DNA of 44,066 nucleotides from a phage, in assembly GCA_029093145.1 (NCBI GenBank), contig GCA_029093145.1_4347.1. One strand, given 5' to 3'. Of the stretch, positions 3,440-19,984 are shown one piece after another (within the stretch, counting starts at the first letter, position 1; each line of letters starts with the position of its first letter). Under the pieces are notes generated by a model. The model was given only the letters and a program-made list of their open reading frames with translations, did no database searches and was not told where the DNA came from. Made by a program: the position numbers and the translations under genes.

Positions 3440-4909
3440 ATGTTAACTATGAACGGTCAGAATCAGGGTGTTAAGACAAAACACCGGGAATGGCTGCATC
3501 ACTTCGATAAATGGCAGAAGGTACGCCACGCGCTGGAAGGCGACCTTATTCGCTATCTGCGCAACGTCGGGAAGAACGAACCTGACCCGACCTACGCAGC
3601 CCAGCGCCAGGAAGAATACGAGAACGGTGCTATCTGTTACAACTTCACTAAACGTACCCTGGCGGGGATGACGGGGTCAGTGATGCGCAAAGACCCTGAG
3701 CAGATTATCCCGCCTGAACTTGAGTACCTGTTGCACAACGCTGACGGTTCGGGTGTAGGGCTGTGGCAGCACGCGCAGGATACGTTAATGGAGATTGACT
3801 CGATAGGACGCGGTGGGTTGCTGGTGGATGCCCCGGAAACAGCCGCAGCAACGGCGGCAGAGCAGAACGCGGGATTATTAAACCCGGTAATCGCATTCTA
3901 TACCGCGGAGAACATTATCAACTGGAGACTCACCCGCATCGGTTCAGTGAACCGCGTGACGATGGTTGTATTGCGTGAGGCATGGGAATACTCGGAACCA
4001 GGCGCTGAGTTTGAAACAAAATTAGGCGAGCAATACCGCGTCCTTGACCTGATTGACGGTCGCTACCGCCAGCGCATCTACCGCTTCGATGCCGAAGGTG
4101 GTGCACAGGATGAAGTAATCGAAATCTTCCCGGAACTCGGCGAACAGTTGCGCGGTAAAATCCCGTTCACGTTCATTGGCGCAAGCAACAACGACGCCAC
4201 TATAGACGATGCGCCTTTACTGCCGTTAGCTGAGCTAAATATAGGACACTTCAGAAATTCGGCCGATGTGGAAGAGGCCAGCTTTATAGTAGGTCAACCG
4301 ACACTGTTCATTGCCCCCGGCGAGAACATGAGCATGGAGCAGTGGAAAGAAGCCAACCCACACGGCATACGCATGGGGTCGCGTTCAGGCCACAACATCG
4401 GCTCCGGCGGAAATGCGTTTCTGGTTCAGGCGGCGGAAACTAACCTCGCCAAACAGAATATGCTGGATAAAGAGAATCAGGCCATCCAGATTGGCGCGCA
4501 GCTTATCACCCCGACGCAGCAAATCACCGCGGAATCGGCCCGCCTGCAACGCGGCGCCGACACGTCAGTCATGGCAACAATAGCACGTAATGTAAGCATG
4601 GCGTATACCGATGCGTTGCGCTGGGTTGCGGGTATGCTTGGGCTTAGTGAAGATACTGAGATTGAATTCAAACTTAACATGGAGTTCTTCCTGCAACCGA
4701 TGACCGCTCAGGACCGTGCACAGTGGATGGCGGATATTAACGCGGGCCTGTTACCAGCTACTGCTTACTATGCGGCATTGCGTAAAGCAGGCGTAACCGA
4801 TTGGACCGATGAGGACATTCAGAACGCTATTGGGGACGCACCGCTGCCGTTGGGTGCGGTTGCTCAGGTAGCAGGAGAAATTCCGCAGTCCGCGCAACAA
4901 CAGGAGTAA
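3440..4909 (+). CDS. portal protein
   Basis: 489 aa ORF directly after terL with SD AGAGGA; canonical position. Confidence 0.8.
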   Translation: MLTMNGQNQGVKTKHREWLHHFDKWQKVRHALEGDLIRYLRNVGKNEPDPTYAAQRQEEYENGAICYNFTKRTLAGMTGSVMRKDPEQIIPPELEYLLHNADGSGVGLWQHAQDTLMEIDSIGRGGLLVDAPETAAATAAEQNAGLLNPVIAFYTAENIINWRLTRIGSVNRVTMVVLREAWEYSEPGAEFETKLGEQYRVLDLIDGRYRQRIYRFDAEGGAQDEVIEIFPELGEQLRGKIPFTFIGASNNDATIDDAPLLPLAELNIGHFRNSADVEEASFIVGQPTLFIAPGENMSMEQWKEANPHGIRMGSRSGHNIGSGGNAFLVQAAETNLAKQNMLDKENQAIQIGAQLITPTQQITAESARLQRGADTSVMATIARNVSMAYTDALRWVAGMLGLSEDTEIEFKLNMEFFLQPMTAQDRAQWMADINAGLLPATAYYAALRKAGVTDWTDEDIQNAIGDAPLPLGAVAQVAGEIPQSAQQQE

Positions 4910-12291: not shown

Positions 12292-12683
12292 GTTTCGCGC
12301 TGGACGTCTCTAAGTTCGTGGAAAAGGCGAAGAAGAACCCTGAGAAGGTGATGCGTCAGGTGTCTATCAAGCTGTTTTCCGCTATTATAAAGGCGAGTCC
12401 GGTAGATACTGGTCGGTTTCGCATGAACTGGATGGCATCTGGCGGTACTCCTGCTTCCGGGATTACGGATGCTACGGATAAATCAGGAAACACAGCAACC
12501 GGAAACGCTACAAGTTTCGTGCTGAAAGCCACCGACTGGCATGAGTTCACGCTGACAAATAACCTGCCGTATGCACAACGGCTGGAGTATGGCTGGTCGC
12601 AACAGGCCCCGCAAGGATTCGTCAGGACTAACGTGTCCCGCTTCCAGCAACTCATTAACGAAGAAGCTAGCAAGGTGAGATGA
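12288..12683 (+). CDS. tail completion/neck protein (HK97 gp10-like, putative)
   Basis: Position and size; overlapping start with upstream gene. Confidence 0.45.
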   Translation: MSFALDVSKFVEKAKKNPEKVMRQVSIKLFSAIIKASPVDTGRFRMNWMASGGTPASGITDATDKSGNTATGNATSFVLKATDWHEFTLTNNLPYAQRLEYGWSQQAPQGFVRTNVSRFQQLINEEASKVR

Positions 12684-13096
12684 TGGGCTACTTTGAGGAC
12701 TTAACAAAAGCGTTTGATGTGCCGCTGGTAGCCTTCGGAACCACCAACGGCATCAAGGTAGCGCTTGAAAACATCGACGCGCCGACGTCAACAGATACGC
12801 CGTATCTGGCAAGTTACATGTTGCTGGCGGATACCGAGCAGGCTGACTTATTCTTCACGGAACAACGCGCCGGTGTCTATCAGATAGACATTAACTACGC
12901 ATCGGTGAAAGGTAGCGCGCCAATCAATAAAATGGCAGACTTACTTAACACGGCGTTTAAATCAGGTAAGGCATTTTCGCGTAACGACATCTGCGCCGAG
13001 GTTCAATCGGTTAGCCTGGGGCCGCTGATTGTAGAAAACGGATGGGCCAAACGACCATTGTCAATTAACTTTATTGCATTCACCAAGAGGCTGTGA
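12680..13096 (+). CDS. tail-associated hypothetical protein
   Basis: Position immediately upstream of major tail gene. Confidence 0.4.
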   Translation: MMGYFEDLTKAFDVPLVAFGTTNGIKVALENIDAPTSTDTPYLASYMLLADTEQADLFFTEQRAGVYQIDINYASVKGSAPINKMADLLNTAFKSGKAFSRNDICAEVQSVSLGPLIVENGWAKRPLSINFIAFTKRL

Positions 13097-13098
13097 AT

Positions 13099-14265
13099 AT
13101 GGCTACAACTCCTTTTAAGGGCGCGAATACCGCGCAATTCTATGTGGCGGAAGTGACCCCGGGCGTAACACCGACTAACCCGGTATGGTCGCCACTGCGT
13201 AACACAGGCGGCGTTCCTGCCATTACCCGTGACACGCTGACCTCCAACGAACTTGACGGCAGCCGAGAAACCACATCCATCCGCACCGGTAACAAGCAGG
13301 TTAGCGGAGAATACGCTATTGAGCTTAGCTCTAAAAGTCAGGACGACTGGTTAGCCGGGGCTTTAGGCTCTACGTGGCAATCCGGCGTTTCCCTGTCAGG
13401 ACTATCGATTACCGTCGCACCCGCGGGCAAGACGTTCACACGCGCTACCGGCAGTTTTATCACTGACGGAGTTGGGGTAGGCGACCTGATTGCGTTTACC
13501 GATTTAACAGGCGATAACGTAAAACCATTTATTGTTACTGCAGTAACGGCTACGGTTGTTACTGGTGCGGGCATCCAACACACCCTGACCACCGAGACAA
13601 AAACTAGTAAGGCTAAAACTGGCGACACGTTGGAAACCGGTAACACGTGTAAGACGTTCTCTATCCTTACCTGGTACAAAGGCCAGTGCGGCGGTACTGA
13701 CGCGTACACGTTAACCAAAGGCGTGGAAGTTTCTGGTTTTACCATCGAACAGGCTGTTAACGCGATGGTAACTGGCAGCTTCCCATTCATCGGTCGCAGT
13801 CAGGAGATTCTCACTACGCCGCCGACCGGTTCCAACTTCTCATCTGTTACTTTTGGTGATGAGCCGTTCTCTTCGGTTGACGTTTCCGTGTTCGACGGCT
13901 CTACGCCGTTGCGTTGCGACAGCCTGACTATCACCAACGATAACAGCGCGTCCGCGCAGTTCGAACTTGGTAACACTAACGTAGCGTTTGTGGAGCGTAG
14001 CCGTGCAGCTAACACATTCTCTATCTCTGGCAAGCTGTACGACATGGCGATGATTCAGAAGTTTATCAACGAGCAGCAGGTAGAGATTAACTCTATTCTG
14101 GCAGGGGTAAACGGGGCTATGTCTTTCAGTTTGAAACGTGCAGAGCTTACGGCGGTTACACCTGAGATTGGTGGGCCTGAGTCAATCACTCAGTCCATTG
14201 AAGGCCAGGCTACCGGCAATCAGTACCAGTCGTCTATCGTAATTCAACGTATCACCTACGCATAA
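13099..14265 (+). CDS. major tail protein (putative)
   Basis: ~388 aa ORF upstream of chaperone/tape-measure region; SD AAGAGG before ATG 13099. Confidence 0.6.
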   Translation: MATTPFKGANTAQFYVAEVTPGVTPTNPVWSPLRNTGGVPAITRDTLTSNELDGSRETTSIRTGNKQVSGEYAIELSSKSQDDWLAGALGSTWQSGVSLSGLSITVAPAGKTFTRATGSFITDGVGVGDLIAFTDLTGDNVKPFIVTAVTATVVTGAGIQHTLTTETKTSKAKTGDTLETGNTCKTFSILTWYKGQCGGTDAYTLTKGVEVSGFTIEQAVNAMVTGSFPFIGRSQEILTTPPTGSNFSSVTFGDEPFSSVDVSVFDGSTPLRCDSLTITNDNSASAQFELGNTNVAFVERSRAANTFSISGKLYDMAMIQKFINEQQVEINSILAGVNGAMSFSLKRAELTAVTPEIGGPESITQSIEGQATGNQYQSSIVIQRITYA

Positions 14266-14296
14266 AACTAAGGCCCCTTTCGGGGCCTTTTTCTTA
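14265..14296. terminator. bidirectional terminator
   Basis: AAAACTAAGGCCCC-TTTC-GGGGCCTTTTTCTT; A-run and T-run on both sides of the hairpin. Confidence 0.65.
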
Positions 14297-14848
14297 CAAA
14301 CCTAATTTTAAAGCAATGTCTATAACGTTCGATTTAACGTCACCCGGTATGATGTAGGTGTCGTAATCTTTTACACCACTAACATCGTACAGATAGCCAC
14401 GGCTATCGCAGATGAACGTATAGCCGTCACGATGGAGGCGGACGATTCGCACGTCATGCCCCGCGGCGACGATAGGGGCAACTTCACTGGCGAATCCACC
14501 ATCGGACACTACAAAAACTTCGTCGCCGTCAGGCAAGTTTTCAGCAAGATACTTACCGAAATAATCATCGCCGAATACCGGTTTAATGAATTGCTCAGAA
14601 ATGGCAATCATTAACCGGCGGCGGGACAACCCATTAAGAAAACCCTCGGGTTTTTCTTTCCGCGCCCGGTCGTCGTAGCCGTCGAGAAATTCGTGGTAAG
14701 CATCCTGGCCTAACGCTGCCAAAGCAATATTGAACATTGGATTCTTGAAACTGGTAGTTCCTTTCGCAAAGCCCATTTCTACCAGCGCCATAGCAAGCGT
14801 GTCTTTCCCGCAACCCGCAGGGCCATTAAGAATAATTACCTTAGCCAT
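14294..14848 (-). CDS. P-loop kinase, dNMP-kinase-like
   Basis: Walker A GPAGCGKDT at N-terminus; SRRRLM segment recalled as typical of T4 gp1-type dNMP kinases. Confidence 0.65.
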   Translation of the reverse strand: MAKVIILNGPAGCGKDTLAMALVEMGFAKGTTSFKNPMFNIALAALGQDAYHEFLDGYDDRARKEKPEGFLNGLSRRRLMIAISEQFIKPVFGDDYFGKYLAENLPDGDEVFVVSDGGFASEVAPIVAAGHDVRIVRLHRDGYTFICDSRGYLYDVSGVKDYDTYIIPGDVKSNVIDIALKLGL

Positions 14849-15336
14849 TATTTATCGCTCCCGTGTGGTTTTAAGTGTGTAGAGTTCCCGTTACAGTCGT
14901 ATTCGGTAACTGCGTGTGCAGTTATGCCGAGGTCACGGAAATGCTTTATTACCGCTGGAGAGTCGTCGAACGCACACAAGATTCTTTCCAGTCCGAAAGC
15001 ACGCAACACCTCTTCTTTAATTACGATGTCTTTTCTGTTGTCGTGTTTGCTGCGCATGATTAGCGTGTCAAACCTAACGTTATTCTCTCGTAACCATTCG
15101 CGAGTCTCCTCCTCAGCGTCATCACTTCGCCCGGTAAGGATAATTATAGTAAGTCCGGAATGCCACAGTACGCTACACAAATGGATATTGTCGTATATCG
15201 GAGCGTCATCTTTGCAGGCCATGTTAAATGGCTTCCACGCCCACGTTTCTCCGTAGTTATCTTTTGGTAACAGGTGTAAGCGATGGGTACCGTCGGCCAA
15301 TGTCCCGTCTAAATCGAAAATTACAATATCTTTCAT
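14848..15336 (-). CDS. HAD-superfamily phosphatase (Pnk-phosphatase / 5'-nucleotidase-like)
   Basis: HAD motif I IVIFDLDGTLA, motif II ILTGR, motif IV AFDDS; overlaps flanking genes by 1-4 nt. Confidence 0.7.
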   Translation of the reverse strand: MKDIVIFDLDGTLADGTHRLHLLPKDNYGETWAWKPFNMACKDDAPIYDNIHLCSVLWHSGLTIIILTGRSDDAEEETREWLRENNVRFDTLIMRSKHDNRKDIVIKEEVLRAFGLERILCAFDDSPAVIKHFRDLGITAHAVTEYDCNGNSTHLKPHGSDK

Positions 15337-16463
15337 CCCAGCATCTCCGGTGAAATAGTTAAACGTGCGACCTCGCCATATTCGGCGCTATAAGTAATTA
15401 CATTTGCACTGCGGCCCGACATCCATCCGCCGCGAGAGGCGTAGGCGTCTTTAGCCGCTAAGGTGCGGTGTTGCTCAACAATCATGTTACGGCTTTCTAC
15501 AATCTTCTGGTGGTGCAGATGGCCTACGTGGGCGTAGCTGTAAACACTCTCGCCGAACGCTTTACGGAACTTGGCAATCATAACCGGTTCGATAGCGTCG
15601 AATCGTGCTTTATGCCCGTGATGGAAGAACAGCGTCGTTTTGCCGTGTTGCACCATCTTGTAAACATCCGGCGACGTATCAACAATCACTCGGCTGTCGT
15701 TTGAGTATAAAACCGTGAACATTTCAGCAAGCCATACGGAGCCAACAGGGTCGTGGTTACCTTGAACGATTAAAAGTTTTACTGTGTGATGCTTAACCAG
15801 CGCCATATCAACAACACGGCGGACCATACGAATCATGTAACGTACCAGTTTCTGATAGCGAGTATCCGCATCTAATACATGGCGCGACTCGGGGGTAACG
15901 GCATCAAGACTATCGAAGTGTGCGAAGTCCCCAAGCAGGTTAATAACTCCTGTTCCTGCATCCGGTGCTTTCTGAAACGCCGCGTCGAACCACCGAGAGA
16001 ACAGGTCTTCTGCAATCTTCATGTCCCAGTCGTCGCCGCTCTCATCGGCCCATGCCAGCATACCGAGATGGAAATCAGATACCGTGTAAAGATTGAGTAG
16101 TTTATCGTCACGTTTGGCGCGCGCCGCTTTAACAGGCGCAACGGGCGTAATCTCTGACTTCATGCCCTCTATTACGGCTTTCATCAATTCAACCTGACGT
16201 TCGGCGTCGGTATCAGTCTTAACCCATTGCAACTTAGTGTTGCCGAACTCGTCCACCAGGGACGACGTTCCTTTAATCTTGTAACCGTCTGGTACAAGGT
16301 GGCTAACGTCGCGCCCGTGGCCCACGCCTTTCTTAGCCAGCTTCGCTTTACGGATACGAATTACGCGGTCTGAGATGCCGTATTTACGGGCGATATCTAC
16401 ATTCTTCATACCGGCGTTCAATTCTTCCTGCAACTGTTCGTCGGTTATTTTCTTCCGGGCCAT
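15333..16463 (-). CDS. HTH-fused calcineurin-like metallophosphoesterase
   Basis: N-terminal HTH-like region; metallophosphoesterase motifs SDFHLG, GDFAHFD, GNHD, HHGH, GHLHH; SD GAGGAA. Confidence 0.65.
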   Translation of the reverse strand: MARKKITDEQLQEELNAGMKNVDIARKYGISDRVIRIRKAKLAKKGVGHGRDVSHLVPDGYKIKGTSSLVDEFGNTKLQWVKTDTDAERQVELMKAVIEGMKSEITPVAPVKAARAKRDDKLLNLYTVSDFHLGMLAWADESGDDWDMKIAEDLFSRWFDAAFQKAPDAGTGVINLLGDFAHFDSLDAVTPESRHVLDADTRYQKLVRYMIRMVRRVVDMALVKHHTVKLLIVQGNHDPVGSVWLAEMFTVLYSNDSRVIVDTSPDVYKMVQHGKTTLFFHHGHKARFDAIEPVMIAKFRKAFGESVYSYAHVGHLHHQKIVESRNMIVEQHRTLAAKDAYASRGGWMSGRSANVITYSAEYGEVARLTISPEMLG

Positions 16464-16500
16464 GTTTATTCCTCGTGCTTAGGATTTGTCTTATAGTAGC

Positions 16501-16692
16501 CTACTTCTCTTTCACGTTCGAGTTGCAAGCCCAGATTAAAATGAATACCCACGGCAACAGAATCCACCCGAGAAATAAGTTAGCCATGAATATCGCCAGC
16601 TTTGCTTTATGGTTACGCATATGTGCCACCAAAAACGGGATAAAATAAACGGCTACAAAAATAATTAAGAAGAACATAGTGATACCGGTCAT
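16501..16692 (-). CDS. small membrane protein resembling superinfection-immunity-type proteins
   Basis: Two hydrophobic segments with NLFLGWILLPWVFILIWA motif; SD AGGAG before ATG 16692 (track ORF extends to 16719). Confidence 0.4.
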   Translation of the reverse strand: MTGITMFFLIIFVAVYFIPFLVAHMRNHKAKLAIFMANLFLGWILLPWVFILIWACNSNVKEK

Positions 16693-16743
16693 AACATAAC
16701 TCCTGATTTGAGATAACATCGTTGGTGTAAGTGAATAGTACGC

Positions 16744-16772
16744 TATTATATTGGGGAGTGCAAGTAGTGTGC
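16744..16772 (-). promoter_or_regulatory. class B promoter TTGCAC-N17-TACTAT driving the accessory operon
   Basis: Minus strand TTGCACTCCCCAATATAATAGCGTACTATTCAC; dyad AATAG-N4-CTATT at 16743-16756. Confidence 0.5.
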
Positions 16773-16870
16773 TAGAATAATTTTGCGCCTAGTGTCGCAC
16801 ACGAAAAGCGGGTGGTTCCCGTCTGGCGCATTTCCTTTAACCAGTAACCTCTTAACCAAAGGATTAAAGA

Positions 16871-17287
16871 TTGAAACTTTCTGATTTTTATTACGAAGCG
16901 GAAGCCGAAAAGGGCGCACGTATGCCGATACCGCTAAAAGACGGTACTGATTCCGGGGAATGGCTTAATGTTGTTTCTCCTGAGGCGGACGTTGCCGTTA
17001 AGGCTATGCGCGCGTTCACCCTTGCATACCGGGCAGTATTAGGGAAATTAAAACCGCTTCGTGATAAGTGCGAAGAGATGAAAGATTTCTCTGAATACAA
17101 CCTGAAGATGGAAGACGCGGCGACGGACCTTAACCGTCAGTTAGCGATTGAATTGGTTAACGGGTGGAGCCTTGACGACGAATTCAATAAAGAGAATCTG
17201 AACACACTCCTGACGCAATATAAACGACTCGCGGAACTTGTTGTTGTGTTTCATAACGAACAACTGCACCAGCTACAGGAAAAGTAG
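16871..17287 (+). CDS. tail assembly chaperone (gpG-like)
   Basis: Position immediately upstream of tape measure; TTG start with SD AAGGA. Confidence 0.55.
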   Translation: MKLSDFYYEAEAEKGARMPIPLKDGTDSGEWLNVVSPEADVAVKAMRAFTLAYRAVLGKLKPLRDKCEEMKDFSEYNLKMEDAATDLNRQLAIELVNGWSLDDEFNKENLNTLLTQYKRLAELVVVFHNEQLHQLQEK

Positions 17288-17292
17288 ACGCG

Positions 17293-17652
17293 TTGCTCCA
17301 GTTCGCCCGTTGGAACTTCATAACCCGCCACAAACGGCGGGAATTTGACAGTATCGCCGATGGGCATAAAGCCGCGCTAATTGCTATGGGGGTTATGCAA
17401 GACGCGCCGGATGCAACGCAGGCCGCTGGGCCGGAATGCCCCCCTGAGCTACTAACCACATTTGAGAAGTACAGGGAAATTAAATTCACCCGCCGAGTGG
17501 ACGACGACGGCATCAAGATGTACCCGCGCGAGCAATTACGATGGTCAGATTTAGTGGCGTACAGCACCGTTTCAGGCCAGAATATAGGGATGTTCGAATC
17601 CGACATCATCATGAGCTTAGACGCTATTTTCGAGGGTAGAAACGATGGCTGA
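17293..17652 (+). CDS. tail assembly chaperone extension (gpT-like), possible frameshift product
   Basis: Open in -1 frame from 17257, overlapping the end of the gpG-like ORF; classic G/GT arrangement before tape measure. Confidence 0.4.
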   Translation: MLQFARWNFITRHKRREFDSIADGHKAALIAMGVMQDAPDATQAAGPECPPELLTTFEKYREIKFTRRVDDDGIKMYPREQLRWSDLVAYSTVSGQNIGMFESDIIMSLDAIFEGRNDG

Positions 17653-19984
17653 TGTAGCTAGTTTAGTAGTAAAAGTATCAGAGCAAGGCGCGAAAGCTAC
17701 ATCAGACCGTCTTGATAACCTTTCCAAGTCTGCAAAGGTAGCCGGAGCTGCGGTAGCGGGCCTCGCTTCCATCGTCGCCGCTACCGCTTACAAGGCCGCA
17801 CAGGAACTGGTAGAATCCCAACGGCAACTGGACAAGATGTCCGCCAGCCTGAAAACACTAACCGGAAGCACGCAGGGTGCAAGACAGGCGTTAAGCATCC
17901 TGCAAGACTTCGCGCGCGACACTCCGTATGGCCTTGAACAGGCGGTAGAGGGATTCCGTAAACTTGTGGCGCTTGGTCTTACACCGTCAGAAGAAGCGTT
18001 GCGTTCCTACGGAAACACCGCCGCTGCTATGGGTAAAGACCTGAATCAGATGATTGAGGCGGTTGCAGACGCTAGTACTTTTGAATTTGAGCGCCTTAAA
18101 GAATTTGGTATCAAGGCCAAACAGAACAAAAACGATGTTGAATTTACATTCCAGGGTACTACTACGGTAGTTAAGAAGAGCGCTGCCGACATCGAGCAAT
18201 ACCTGCTCAACATCGGTAACGTAAACTTCGCGGGGGCTATGGCGGACCAGGCCAACACACTTAACGGGGCCATCGCCAGTGCCAGCGACTCATGGTCGCA
18301 GTTAAAAATGACACTGGCTACCAGTCTTGATGTTGGTGCGCTCGCCGAACCTATCCGATACATCGATGATTTAATCCAGGAACTTAACGCACAGGTTGCA
18401 TCCGGTGAACTTGCCGCAGAGATGCGTATGTGGGGTGACATCGCGTCGGAAGTAGGAAGCGCGATAGAGATGTCGTTCGACGCGGCATTTGGTTTTGTAG
18501 GTGACGCGATAAATGGACTGAATGAACTTTGGGATTTTAGCAGTAAAAGTATCACCGATAGCGGCGAACAAACGGCGACAACCATCGCGGAATCAGCTGC
18601 CGATGCGCTCGATTTCATCGCGGAAGAATTTACCGCGATGGAGCGCTTCTTTGAAGATATGGTTAAAGGGGCACAGGATGCTGGCCGGTTGGTGAAAGCT
18701 GCCTTCACACCAGGGGAATCTGTAGACGTAGCAAAAAACATTAACTTCCAGCTAGGGATGGCACTGGATACTCAGCGCGATGTTGCGGACCTGACCCGTA
18801 AAAGTTTCCGCGAACAGGTGGAGGCTCAGCAAAATATCGTCGCGCTTAAACGCGCAGCGTATGACATCGACAAAGAAGCCGCTAAGGAAGAAGGGCTTAG
18901 TAAATTTAAGGTAACTGGTGCTGGTGGCGGGTCCGAAGATGATAACGCTGGTGCAAAAGCCGCCAAGAAAGCTGCGGATGCGTTCGAGCGCCAGAAGAAA
19001 GCCGCCGAGGATTTCTACTACCAGTCGATTCATCTCAATGATGACGTATTCCAGAAAATAGAAGCCAACCAGGAACAGCAGTTAACCAAGCTACAAGAGT
19101 TTTACAGCAACCAGCTTCTTAGCGACCAGCAATACGAGAACGCCAAGACGCAGATTATGCTGGAGGCGGACACCGCACGTCAGGAAGAATTGGATAAGCG
19201 CGAGAAAGAACGGCAGGAGAAAAAGCAGAAAGGCGACGACTTCATGGCTCAGATTATGGGCCAGAACGCTACTGAGCTTGAGCTTCTCGACATCCAGGAA
19301 CAGCAGAAACTGGCGGTAGCCGATAAGTACCGTGAGCAGGGTCTTATTAGTGAGAAGCAGTATCAGGCTGCGCTTAATGCCATCAACGAGCAGTACGCCA
19401 CGAAGCGTGCCGACGCAACGGCAACGGCCTTCGGTAACATGGCCTCAAACATCGGTTCGGCTTTGGGCGAGGCTTCTGGCGCGTACAAGGCATTCGCTAT
19501 CGTGCAGGCCACTATAGCCACGTACACCGCGGCTATTGAGGCGTATAAGTCAACAGCGGCTATCCCTGTAGTTGGCCCGTTCCTGGCTCCTGTAGCTGCC
19601 GCTGCTGCCGTTGGGGCGGGTATGGCTCAGGTTTCCGCTATCAGGTCAGCACGTGAACAGGGCGGTCAGTTATCAGCGGGACAGGCTTCCACCATCGCCG
19701 AGCGCGGAAAACCAGAAGTTATCATGCCTGCGGGTGCATCGCGTGTGCGCACCGCGCAGCAGATGAAAGAAATTATGGGGCAAAACGGCGGCAGTACCGG
19801 ACCAGCCAATATCAGCATTATAAATAACACCAGTGCACAAATTGGCAACACCAGCGTTGAACAGGACGAAGAAGGCCGCCTACGTATCATCATCGAAGAA
19901 CAGGTAGCCGCCTCTTTGCAGAATAGCAACAGCAAAATATCGAAAGCGAGGAAGGCTACAAGAAACGCACCGGGCTTTAAGTAG
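17645..19984 (+). CDS. tape measure protein
   Basis: 779 aa, Ala/Gln/Glu-rich, follows chaperone pair. Confidence 0.85.
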   Translation: MADVASLVVKVSEQGAKATSDRLDNLSKSAKVAGAAVAGLASIVAATAYKAAQELVESQRQLDKMSASLKTLTGSTQGARQALSILQDFARDTPYGLEQAVEGFRKLVALGLTPSEEALRSYGNTAAAMGKDLNQMIEAVADASTFEFERLKEFGIKAKQNKNDVEFTFQGTTTVVKKSAADIEQYLLNIGNVNFAGAMADQANTLNGAIASASDSWSQLKMTLATSLDVGALAEPIRYIDDLIQELNAQVASGELAAEMRMWGDIASEVGSAIEMSFDAAFGFVGDAINGLNELWDFSSKSITDSGEQTATTIAESAADALDFIAEEFTAMERFFEDMVKGAQDAGRLVKAAFTPGESVDVAKNINFQLGMALDTQRDVADLTRKSFREQVEAQQNIVALKRAAYDIDKEAAKEEGLSKFKVTGAGGGSEDDNAGAKAAKKAADAFERQKKAAEDFYYQSIHLNDDVFQKIEANQEQQLTKLQEFYSNQLLSDQQYENAKTQIMLEADTARQEELDKREKERQEKKQKGDDFMAQIMGQNATELELLDIQEQQKLAVADKYREQGLISEKQYQAALNAINEQYATKRADATATAFGNMASNIGSALGEASGAYKAFAIVQATIATYTAAIEAYKSTAAIPVVGPFLAPVAAAAAVGAGMAQVSAIRSAREQGGQLSAGQASTIAERGKPEVIMPAGASRVRTAQQMKEIMGQNGGSTGPANISIINNTSAQIGNTSVEQDEEGRLRIIIEEQVAASLQNSNSKISKARKATRNAPGFK

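Follow-up and report, generated by a model that had tools for sequence, protein, structure and literature searches.

An antisense gene set of Imm, metallophosphoesterase, HAD phosphatase and dNMP kinase in an Escherichia coli Kagunavirus, with a probable role in nucleotide management during infection

Why does a block of genes run against the tail genes of a phage, and what might its products do together? The window, the whole stretch of 44,066 nucleotides that was analyzed, comes from an E. coli Kagunavirus (Guernseyvirinae) with approximately 94% identity to several published E. coli phages. As the original prediction held, the ORF list contains an antisense unit, four minus-strand ORFs at 14294–16719 between the genes for the tail tube and the tail assembly chaperone (Table 1), and this separately organized unit is non-structural in character. 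Tight coupling of all four genes had also been claimed; the metallophosphoesterase (MPE) and HAD phosphatase genes do overlap by 4 nt (ATGA) and the HAD and kinase genes by 1 nt (TAATG), but the gene for the membrane protein (Imm) has no overlap and leaves a gap of 37 nt before the MPE start, so translational coupling extends to three genes and not to four. The GC content of the block is slightly low (0.479, compared with 0.507 for the window).

Table 1. Coordinates of the antisense block and the features around it
Feature	Position	Strand	Basis
Tail tube gene	13093-14265	plus	PF18906
Bidirectional intrinsic-terminator hairpin, common to tail tube gene (+) and antisense block (-)	14270-14289	both	terminator scan
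Predicted dNMP kinase (DNK), 184 aa, T4 gp1 type, P-loop GPAGCGK15DT	14294-14848	minus	phrog_139, E 3e-44
Stand-alone HAD phosphatase, 162 aa, Pnkp-phosphatase / T5 Dmp clade	14848-15336	minus	PF25109 HAD_PNKP 3e-20; phrog_415 3e-64
HTH-fused binuclear metallophosphoesterase (MPE), 376 aa	15333-16463	minus	phrog_704, 1e-162
Membrane protein of the superinfection-immunity (T4 Imm-like) type, 63 aa, two TM helices	16501-16692	minus	PF14373, phrog_1039
Candidate sigma-70 promoter with the best conservation, TTGCAC-N17-TACTAT	16735-16763	minus	read from sequence and alignment of 7 relatives
int-alpA-like structured RNA element	16782-16846	plus	Rfam RF02996, 36.6 bits vs gathering score 35.8
Tail assembly chaperone gene	16871-17287	plus	PF08748

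Profile searches uphold the domains predicted for the three enzymes, an HTH-metallophosphoesterase, a HAD phosphatase and a dNMP-kinase-like P-loop kinase. The first protein, by contrast, is not merely the small membrane protein it had been called but a homolog of T4 Imm: it matches PF14373 at 1.8e-13 (50.6 bits, cutoff 27.9), tblastn reaches the imm genes of T-even phages at approximately 38% identity, and its hydrophobic spans cover residues 4–24 and 32–56. The longest form of its ORF (16501–16719) opens at an in-frame ATG at 16719, upstream of the start after AGGAG that relatives annotate (16692). Family membership, two transmembrane helices and a similar size are shared with T4 Imm, but here the protein belongs to a siphophage with a DNA-entry route unlike that of T4. 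The MPE, labeled "DNA repair exonuclease" in databases, has a LuxR/FixJ-like N-terminal HTH, and its motifs are all invariant (D130/H132, G178/D179, N236/H237, H282 and G314/H315/H317). Its AF2 model is mediocre (pLDDT 67), and the fold matches are those of a generic MPE (Rv0805, Mre11 and LpxH, with Rv0805 the best in the PDB at a TM of approximately 0.3–0.4), which do not discriminate between nucleases of the Mre11 type and phosphodiesterases acting on cyclic nucleotides or lipids. The HAD protein carries the motif DxDGT (D8-D10-T12); its family profile matches Pnkp1 (4XRP) at 1e-17 and T4 Pnkp at approximately 1e-10, and it aligns with T5 Dmp by hhalign (probability 88%, E 3e-6), a remote similarity of 27% over 141 columns. 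By profile comparison, this protein is related both to the phosphatase domains of T4 Pnkp and Pnkp1 and to T5 Dmp. One homolog with 54% identity carries a dATP/dGTP diphosphohydrolase domain as its fusion partner, and natural HAD–DNK fusion proteins have the same domain order as the genes of the block (P0260 and P0261). In contrast to these family assignments, the functions of the MPE and HAD proteins are ones that we infer.

The original prediction took the entire block for an acquired accessory (moron) module, a reading weighed here as a recent acquisition with an enzyme cassette not previously described, and the block's antisense orientation, own terminator, promoter-like elements and slightly low GC content are consistent with it. 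However, the Imm and MPE genes lie at the same tail tube/tail chaperone junction in both Kagunavirus and Jerseyvirus, a synteny that contradicts recent acquisition for this half of the block; megablast finds DNA matches to the pair in 247 records, of which 128 are Salmonella phages. Matches to the HAD and kinase genes number 57 records by megablast and cover approximately half of the Kagunavirus records; elsewhere, the slot is taken by other genes (small ORFs, HNH or Ant). This segment is also mosaic, with 99.9% identity to phage 22664BS2 compared with 96.5% for the adjoining Imm–MPE segment, which does speak for its acquisition. On these comparisons, Imm and MPE are part of the subfamily core and no recent insertion, and the accessory portion is the HAD and kinase pair only, so that core status and synteny in relatives hold for two of the four genes and fail for the other two. 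Nor is the enzyme combination a non-standard one, as had been claimed: the gene order MPE, HAD, kinase, all on one strand, recurs in four phage lineages that are unrelated to each other (Webervirus, Sauletekiovirus, a Yersinia phage and Erwinia podophages, with Drexlerviridae and Autographiviridae among the families represented), the KanT1 paper has described this order in Drexlerviridae and interpreted it as nucleotide supply (PMC13164509), and close relatives in GenBank already annotate all four genes. In the Drexlerviridae (Klebsiella phage Skenny and Pantoea phage AAS23; PMC13164509), the arrangement reads [quoted passage not shown] beside the lysis cassette; the three families, their order and orientation and the terminator that follows agree with the window (identities of approximately 40% for MPE, 56% for HAD and 41% for the kinase), and the two groups alike have a core MPE and an optional HAD–kinase pair, whereas the window unit is antisense in the tail module, headed by Imm and away from the lysis genes. 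Given this synteny and recurrence, we regard a recent moron comprising all four genes as very improbable.

The bidirectional terminator that had been predicted is confirmed: the hairpin AAGGCCCC-N4-GGGGCCTT has an 8-bp stem with G-C pairs at six of eight positions and a 4-nt loop, the scan calls it on both strands, and the stem is unchanged in 6/6 aligned Kagunavirus and Jerseyvirus sequences, in which the loop is found in either orientation. The promoter proposed at 16744–16772 is better viewed as a consensus-level guess; it does contain a perfect −10 hexamer, TATAAT (minus strand, 16750–16745), but the −35 is poor (3/6), and among seven aligned relatives, other Kagunaviruses have CATAAT at this place and Jerseyvirus does not keep the hexamer. 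This hexamer falls within the spacer of the best-conserved candidate (TTGCAC at 16763–16758, N17, TACTAT at 16740–16735), the Jerseyvirus counterpart of which is TTGCAT-N17-TATTAT; the promoter scan called neither candidate. In RNA-seq of Kagunavirus K1B4, Imm peaks in a temporal class other than that of the neighboring tail genes, which suggests, by analogy with this related phage, that the block may be regulated independently of the tail genes. In the divergent control region, an int-alpA-like RNA directly precedes the tail assembly chaperone gene, adjoining the block and outside its transcript; 97% of cells pair in the alignment, and two of the pairs are compensatory when Kagunavirus is compared with Jerseyvirus.

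The kinase yields an AF2 model with a pLDDT of 94, and T4 dNMP kinase (1DEK, E 9e-6) heads the PDB fold matches of this model. It shares its PHROG family, fold and a P-loop with GK-D with T4 gp1 but only 20% identity, and it is shorter (184 aa versus 241). Residues invariant in the family alignment include K15, D16, R77, E85, D116, D148 and R150. Homologs in distant viral contigs neighbor genes for ThyX, HD, RNR, MazG, dUTPase, SHMT and NT5C deoxynucleotidase. The kinase of Webervirus Skenny shows 41% identity to the window kinase; vB_KpnS-VAC2, a Klebsiella siphophage, is from its name presumably also a Webervirus. A 2024 preprint (10.1101/2024.12.20.629578) describes phage DNKs as true dNMP kinases and as triggers of Kongming defense: the DNK of Rao1, with its catalytic Lys at position 15, phosphorylates dAMP, dGMP, dCMP and dTMP, its deletion lowers dATP, and the DNKs of T5 and Klebsiella phage vB_KpnS-VAC2 behave like it. 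The window kinase has PHROG family, fold and P-loop in common with these three, and the P-loop Lys of its family is at position 15, as in Rao1. By family and fold it is predicted to be a T4-gp1-type dNMP kinase, with an activity carried over from the other phage DNKs.

The kinase assignment also bears on nucleic-acid end healing, in which the pair would act as a split, reverse-order Pnkp: the HAD protein would strip 3'-phosphates, the P-loop kinase would phosphorylate the 5'-OH ends left by DNA nicking or RNA cleavage, the MPE would trim ends or open 2',3'-cyclic phosphates, and a host or phage ligase would seal. The HAD protein is a bona fide member of the Pnkp-phosphatase family, phosphatase–kinase fusions are known, as in T4 Pnkp, and in the Pnkp-Hen1 repair system the phosphatase of bacterial Pnkp is reported to be of the MPE type. 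A DNA ligase gene stands directly after the triad in Erwinia phage S2 and contigs related to it, Proteus phage Pm5460 has MPE, kinase and ligase genes in that order, and one distant kinase homolog lies near an Rnl2-type RNA ligase; yet ligase adjacency is confined to T7-like genomes, in which DNA-metabolism genes are clustered anyway, and distant kinase homologs are mostly found among nucleotide-biosynthesis genes. T4 Pnkp/PseT and bacterial Pnkp1 likewise couple a PF25109 phosphatase physically to a kinase, but in the window the HAD protein stands alone and comes first, the kinase is of the gp1 and not the Pnk type, and the annotation of the close relative K-02 lists no ligase. T4 Pnk is absent among the best 50 fold matches listed for the kinase model, and the phage DNKs assayed in vitro act on dNMPs (10.1101/2024.12.20.629578). 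We consider end healing unlikely.

Manipulation of the nucleotide pool is the best supported of the three functions originally proposed, ahead of end healing and counter-defense. We posit that the block has occupied its junction since before the divergence of Kagunavirus and Jerseyvirus and that its cargo slot holds, in the window phage, the translationally coupled phosphatase and kinase. Judging from its family, Imm would enter the inner membrane and block DNA entry by superinfecting phages. The HTH-MPE would bind DNA and cleave phosphodiester bonds, most likely in the degradation or processing of host DNA, in the pattern of phage T5, in which DNA-binding A2 and the metallophosphatase A1 degrade the host chromosome and A1 is necessary and sufficient for this degradation. 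By analogy with the biochemistry and genetics of other phage dNMP kinases, the kinase would turn the resulting dNMPs into dNDPs, which host NDK would convert to dNTPs for phage replication, and the HAD protein, homologous to both types, may edit this pool, taking off 3'-phosphates if it acts as Pnkp does or 5'-phosphates if it acts as T5 Dmp does. The T5 pre-early operon (A2, the two-TM membrane protein 005, A1 and dmp) together with T5 DNK makes up a similar functional set: a DNA-binding function, a two-TM protein, a metallophosphatase, a HAD-type nucleotide phosphatase and a dNMP kinase. However, homology of the window MPE to A1 is not established (hhalign probability 5%), the T5.005 protein is no Imm homolog, the T5 kinase gene lies outside the pre-early operon, and in T5 Dmp and DNK come from separate loci at different times and nucleosides are excreted, whereas phosphatase and kinase are translationally coupled in the window.

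The relationship to Dmp raises counter-defense, in which the HAD protein, and possibly the MPE, would destroy precursors or signals of nucleotide-based host immunity (for example, dAMP or dIMP, which feed the dITP signal of Kongming; m6-dAMP, which PUA-Cal-HAD senses; or cyclic nucleotides) and so let the phage keep a DNK that otherwise betrays it. T5 Dmp counters Kongming by depleting dAMP, and its homologs are reported to co-occur with DNKs; Imm, another gene of inter-phage conflict, is in the same unit, the cargo slot is variable, as is often the case for anti-defense loci, and the best PDB match of the MPE is a cyclic-nucleotide phosphodiesterase. We are cautious, given that the resemblances to Dmp and Rv0805 are respectively remote and generic, and that coliphages encoding a DNK proved sensitive in general in the Kongming study, with resistance confined to T5-like phages; Pnkp-type HAD proteins beside DNKs evidently give no protection as a rule. 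PADLOC gives no hits, and no known anti-defense family was matched. The PUA-Calcineurin-CE-HAD defense (PMC12871103) also encodes an MPE and a HAD phosphatase together, which act sequentially on deoxynucleotides from host DNA breakdown, but it is a dNTP-depleting host system with a PUA sensor, the phage unit adds a kinase acting the opposite way, and PADLOC found no sequence link between the two. We rate counter-defense as more doubtful still than end healing.

Nucleotide economy has difficulties of its own. The fold matches of the MPE give no sign of nuclease over other phosphodiesterase activity, no other nucleotide-metabolism genes appear in the annotation of K-02 (94% identical), and Rao1 without its DNK shows no fitness cost (10.1101/2024.12.20.629578). 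Coupled, or even fused, to a dNMP kinase, a phosphatase of 5'-dNMPs would possibly oppose it in a futile cycle; together with the HAD–DNK fusions, this problem suggests that the two enzymes differ in their substrates or in the ends on which they act, which would also fit end healing. The absence of the pair from about half of the Kagunaviruses counts against a strong fitness effect and fits a unit that is beneficial yet dispensable. We see an even chance that this is a separately transcribed unit of host takeover and nucleotide economy with a fixed 5' part and a swappable 3' cargo slot; more broadly, the block is a gene set that recurs among phages and has been annotated before, and it most likely serves to manage nucleotides in the course of infection.

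The antisense block between the tail genes of the window is a new example of an arrangement that is known, occurs widely, and has been annotated before, not an acquired, undescribed cassette. The ORF list and the sequence confirm four minus-strand genes lying between the plus-strand genes for the tail tube and the tail assembly chaperone; read 5′ to 3′, they encode a membrane protein related to the superinfection-immunity protein Imm of T4, a helix–turn–helix metallophosphoesterase (HTH-MPE), a stand-alone HAD phosphatase, and a kinase. The tight overlaps described in the original prediction are present between MPE and HAD (ATGA) and between HAD and kinase (TAATG) but not at the Imm gene, which lies 37 nt from that of MPE. 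The GC content of the block is 0.479 versus 0.507 for the window. A megablast search of GenBank phages with positions 12500–18500 returned full-length matches at 94.5–90% identity to the Escherichia coli siphophages phiEc4, K-02, 22664BS2, Golestan, and others, and weaker matches extending to several hundred Salmonella phages; records with a taxonomy line assign the matched phages to the Guernseyvirinae, namely Kagunavirus (E. coli) and Jerseyvirus (Salmonella).

Features of the antisense block and its surroundings in the window
Feature	Coordinates	Strand	Basis
Tail tube gene	13093-14265	+	PF18906
Kinase	14294-14848	-	ORF list and sequence
HAD	14848-15336	-	ORF list and sequence
HTH-MPE	15333-16463	-	ORF list and sequence
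Imm membrane protein	16501-16692 (or 16719)	-	ORF list and sequence
int-alpA-like RNA	16782-16846 (also 4784-4848 in locus L001)	+	Rfam RF02996, 36.6 bits vs gathering 35.8
Tail assembly chaperone	16871-17287	+	PF08748; start codon TTG
Second tail-assembly-chaperone ORF	17293-17652	+	PF23812; adjoins 16871-17287, upstream of tape measure gene

Of the marks of an acquired accessory (moron) module, which the whole unit was proposed to be, the terminator is present, the promoter is at consensus level, and absence from relatives holds for HAD and kinase but not for Imm and MPE, which are retained across two genera. An antisense unit starting with Imm and MPE occupies the same junction in the Kagunaviruses K-02, Ivi, ORH_001, and XY1 and in the Jerseyviruses SE126_1pH and C12, and this Jerseyvirus synteny rules out that the four genes were recently inserted together. 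HAD and kinase fill the variable 3′ end of the block, which we call the cargo slot, in the window, K-02, and XY1. Ivi has three small ORFs there; ORH_001 has two, past which an HNH gene lies on the other strand; and SE126_1pH and C12 have a small ORF together with an Ant/Roi-like protein, with a preceding HNH gene in the former. A common Imm–MPE junction followed by differing genes points to a unit ancestral to the subfamily with a swappable 3′ cargo slot. By megablast, the Imm and MPE DNA matches 247 records, including 128 from Salmonella phages; the corresponding counts are 169 for the tail tube gene and 57 for the HAD and kinase DNA, the latter nearly all E. coli Kagunaviruses. The HAD and kinase segment (14294–15336) is 99.9% identical to 22664BS2 and 99.5% identical to EF2-1 and BEU33/35, whereas identity of the neighboring Imm and MPE segment (15337–16719) peaks at 96.5%, again with 22664BS2, which indicates mosaic exchange; the tail tube gene is approximately 97% identical to a different phage, phiEc4. 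An ORF of 68–76 codons in the cargo slot of Kagunaviruses lacking HAD and kinase and of a Jerseyvirus (L002 2463-2693, L003 3035-3241, and L010 5112-5342) has similarity limited to the 70 C-terminal residues of the approximately 235-residue phrog_2452 and of phrog_17613 (“ATPase”). The 76-codon form was considered as a kinase remnant and rejected, being unrelated to the kinase on comparison.

The enzyme combination had been thought nonstandard, yet the same triad recurs in other phage groups, is in print, and is annotated in relatives. Homologs are found in 2,038 (MPE), 1,882 (HAD), and 1,533 (kinase) phage records, and the order MPE, HAD, kinase on one strand is found in Webervirus Skenny, Sauletekiovirus AAS23, Yersinia phage 646, and Erwinia podophage S2, the last with a DNA ligase gene after the triad; Proteus phage Pm5460 and Pectobacterium phage Arno160 have MPE and kinase without HAD. 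Among 80 IMG/VR loci that contain a kinase homolog, scanned with custom HMMs, all 16 from Kagunaviruses have MPE–HAD–kinase and 11 of these 16 match the Imm model; in the other 64, HAD (about 19 loci) and MPE (about 16) lie upstream on the same strand in constant order. A survey of 522 Drexlerviridae finds that MPE persists next to the lysis cassette, most often followed by PNK and dNMP kinase, and reads these two as enhancing nucleotide supply (2026; PMC13164509). No NCBIfam family scored above cutoff for the block proteins, PADLOC matched none of the four, and a literature search found no study testing the function of the block in Guernseyvirinae. The analysis adds little for the window itself: in published relatives of approximately 94% identity, these genes are present and bear identical labels.

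The membrane protein is, by sequence, a homolog of T4 Imm: it matches PF14373 (50.6 bits against a Pfam gathering score of 27.9; E = 1.8e-13) and phrog_1039 (3e-24), its 63 residues include two transmembrane helices with hydrophobic spans at residues 4–24 and 32–56, and T-even imm genes are reached from it by tblastn. A direct comparison with the T5.005 membrane protein found no similarity.

The call of an HTH-metallophosphoesterase is upheld by the presence of five MPE motifs and an N-terminal HTH that is LuxR/FixJ-like. The MPE superfamily is defined by the metal-binding motifs DxH, GD, GNH, H, and GHxH together with a β-sandwich fold, and the corresponding residues D130/H132, G178/D179, N236/H237, H282, and G314/H315/H317 are invariant in relatives down to 15% identity; Pfam scores stay under gathering (22.0 vs 27 and 17.2 vs 21.5). 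The protein matches phrog_704 (1e-162), which carries the label “DNA repair exonuclease.” Neither single-sequence nor profile searches of the PDB gave a significant match, Mre11/SbcD included. The AlphaFold model is mediocre (pLDDT 67, from a shallow alignment of 11 sequences); all of its Foldseek matches in the PDB are MPEs (best E = 1e-6), with Rv0805, Mre11, LpxH, and GpdQ resembled about equally, and in BFVD it matches only generic MPEs or unnamed phage proteins. Given these generic fold matches and the lack of a significant PDB sequence match, we regard “exonuclease” as a database label only. An identity as Mre11/SbcD, which combines a nuclease capping domain with a Rad50/SbcC ATPase partner, was not supported, there being no significant PDB sequence match and no SbcC-like gene in the block, and Mre11 being one of several equally weak fold matches. 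Homology to T5 A1 was not established either (hhalign probability 5%; only a short GNHD..S.WL stretch in common); by analogy, the function of MPE could conceivably still resemble that of A1 despite undetected homology. In unrelated siphophages, among them Drexlerviridae, Dhillonvirus, and Rhodobacter phage RcPacific, the HTH-MPE gene lies directly beside holin, endolysin, and spanin genes (L006, L012, L014, L018, L019, and L020). XY1 (L004, 3517-4080 and 4096-5250) has a divergent MPE allele of 59% identity followed by a 187-codon ORF, annotated “calcineurin-like phosphoesterase,” that consists of the C-terminal third of a phrog_704 MPE and an HNH fragment; the structure resembles a scar left after a homing endonuclease drove replacement of the allele.

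The phosphatase and kinase calls likewise hold. HAD exceeds the gathering score of PF25109 (HAD_PNKP; 73.1 vs 27.6 bits, E = 3e-20), and the family alignment conserves its DxDxT nucleophile motif (D8-L-D10-G-T12) along with T68, K107, and D125. The family profile matches Pnkp1 (1e-17) and T4 Pnkp (approximately 1e-10) in the PDB and aligns with Dmp, the dNMP 5′-phosphatase of T5, over 141 columns (hhalign probability 88%, E = 3e-6); BLASTP recovers the motif I region only (E = 5e-4). The kinase matches phrog_139 (3e-44), and its model (pLDDT 94) has the T4 gp1 dNMP kinase 1DEK as top PDB fold match (E = 9e-6, TMq 0.65), with archaeal adenylate kinases and then animal-type phosphomevalonate kinase next in rank; T4 Pnk (1LTQ) is absent among the best 50 fold matches listed. 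Single-sequence and profile searches of the PDB returned P-loop matches only. The P-loop residues G12, G14, K15, and D16 are invariant in the family alignment, and the catalytic lysine of Rao1 DNK is likewise at position 15 (10.1101/2024.12.20.629578). We therefore predict that the kinase is a phage dNMP kinase (DNK) of the T4 gp1 type. All four dNMPs are substrates of phage dNMP kinases such as Rao1 DNK, and dADP and dATP levels rise through these enzymes, conversion of dNMP to dNDP having been shown for Rao1 DNK and being implied for those of T5 and vB_KpnS-VAC2 (10.1101/2024.12.20.629578). In distant viral contigs, lone kinase homologs are encoded beside ThyX, an HD protein, MazG, and RNR (L069), DNA ligase and dUTPase (L083), SHMT (L071), or an NT5C 5′-deoxynucleotidase (L096); another homolog (L064) has an Rnl2 RNA ligase nearby.

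How the two enzymes work together bears on the choice between editing of the nucleotide pool and healing of nucleic-acid ends. Most members of the HAD family are stand-alone proteins of approximately 150 residues (150 representatives). P0260 (403 residues) and P0261 (461 residues) are HAD–DNK fusions with the domain order of the two ORFs in the block, and P0251 (267 residues), 54% identical to HAD of the window, is fused to a dATP/dGTP diphosphohydrolase domain (PF18909). P0339 is also listed with the natural HAD–DNK fusion proteins. Coupling a 5′-dNMP phosphatase to a dNMP kinase would be futile, and the fusions thus suggest distinct substrates for the two activities. This hint leaves room for an end-healing role of HAD and kinase, which the DNA ligase gene adjacent to the set in podophages also helps. 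We consider this role unlikely, given a kinase of gp1 type and no annotated ligase in the close relative K-02 (94% identity to the window); T4-type Pnkp works with a cognate ligase (Rnl1 or a DNA ligase) from its own genome. HAD and kinase do not make up a bifunctional T4-type Pnkp, in which the phosphatase is joined to a Pnk-type polynucleotide 5′-kinase domain: HAD is a separate ORF, and 1DEK is the best fold match of the adjoining kinase.

The signals flanking the block agree in part with those first proposed. The bidirectional terminator is borne out by a hairpin at 14270–14289 that is predicted on both strands; across six relatives in two genera the stem does not vary, and the loop occurs in both orientations. 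The TATAAT hexamer proposed as part of the block's own promoter is present (16750–16745), but its −35 region is poor and a promoter scan did not call it; in the alignment, other Kagunaviruses show CATAAT at this site, and Jerseyvirus lacks conservation of the hexamer. The consensus-level TTGCAC-N17-TACTAT (16763–16735), with the Jerseyvirus counterpart TTGCAT-N17-TATTAT, is the better candidate on sequence grounds. RNA-seq data from Kagunavirus K1B4, too coarse for timing the block itself, put Imm in a temporal class different from that of the adjoining tail genes, which fits independent transcription of the block. The spacer that separates Imm from the chaperone has 85–88% column identity across genera, above that of the flanking genes, and includes an int-alpA-like RNA that scores 36.6 bits in both the window and K-02 and just under gathering in four other relatives. 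Pairing in its three helices extends to 97% of cells, and comparison of Kagunavirus with Jerseyvirus shows two compensatory pairs. Directly upstream of this conserved structured RNA lies a TGn-extended −10 (TGCTAGAAT, 16770–16778), and the element may consequently be the 5′ leader of a transcript that restarts tail gene expression past the antisense block. A 57-codon minus-strand ORF (16746–16919), annotated as hypothetical in several relatives, overlaps the int-alpA-like element as well as the region of the divergent promoters and is probably not a gene. The two chaperone ORFs may be the usual frameshift pair; the second is annotated inconsistently in relatives, at 267 or 360 nt.

The best-supported reading, to which we give roughly even chances, is a separately transcribed unit for host takeover and nucleotide economy. 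Imm is predicted to exclude competitor phages, the DNA-binding MPE would attack DNA, the DNK, as known from other phage DNKs, would feed dNMPs into phage dNTP synthesis, and the putative editing by HAD would act on the nucleotide pool or on nucleic-acid ends. A counter-defense role of HAD or MPE is made attractive by work on the Kongming defense, in which DNKs and the KomA deaminase generate a dITP signal; T5 Dmp counters this defense via dAMP depletion, and Dmp homologs co-occur with DNKs (10.1101/2024.12.20.629578). DNK-encoding coliphages other than T5-like ones are, however, mostly Kongming-sensitive (10.1101/2024.12.20.629578), and we judge this role to be still less probable than end healing.

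Returning to the unit for takeover and nucleotide economy, T5 offers a comparison: its pre-early operon brings together dmp, the DNA-binding A2, a membrane protein with two transmembrane helices, and A1, a predicted metallophosphatase that is required for degradation of host DNA and suffices for it; A1, A2, 005, and Dmp had no Pfam matches. In two stretches of T5 sequence, the DNK of T5 was not located. The PUA-Calcineurin-HAD host defense shows that MPE and HAD can act sequentially on deoxynucleotides (PMC12871103). We speculate, as a long shot on a par with end healing, that HAD and dNMP kinase form a coupled device in which HAD edits the input of a promiscuous kinase and that HTH-MPE is an unrecognized host-DNA-degrading nuclease. 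HAD might strip 3′-phosphates such that nuclease products become kinase substrates, or it might destroy dAMP, dIMP, or m6-dAMP, allowing the phage to raise its dNTP supply while not triggering defenses that sense DNKs or dNMPs, such as Kongming or PUA-Calcineurin-HAD, and HTH-MPE would be the functional counterpart of T5 A1 in T1-like and Jersey-like siphophages.

The value of the block lies in the biochemistry of MPE and the HAD–DNK pair. HTH-MPE, matched in about 2,000 phage records, is labeled as a putative “DNA repair exonuclease,” and a Pnkp/Dmp-type phosphatase is repeatedly coupled, sometimes by fusion, to a dNMP kinase of the kind that triggers the Kongming defense. Kagunaviruses that naturally differ in having or lacking HAD and kinase (phiEc4 or K-02 vs Ivi) could separate dNTP supply, end repair, and immune evasion, which is relevant to the host range of phages being isolated as therapeutic agents for K1 and uropathogenic E. 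coli.
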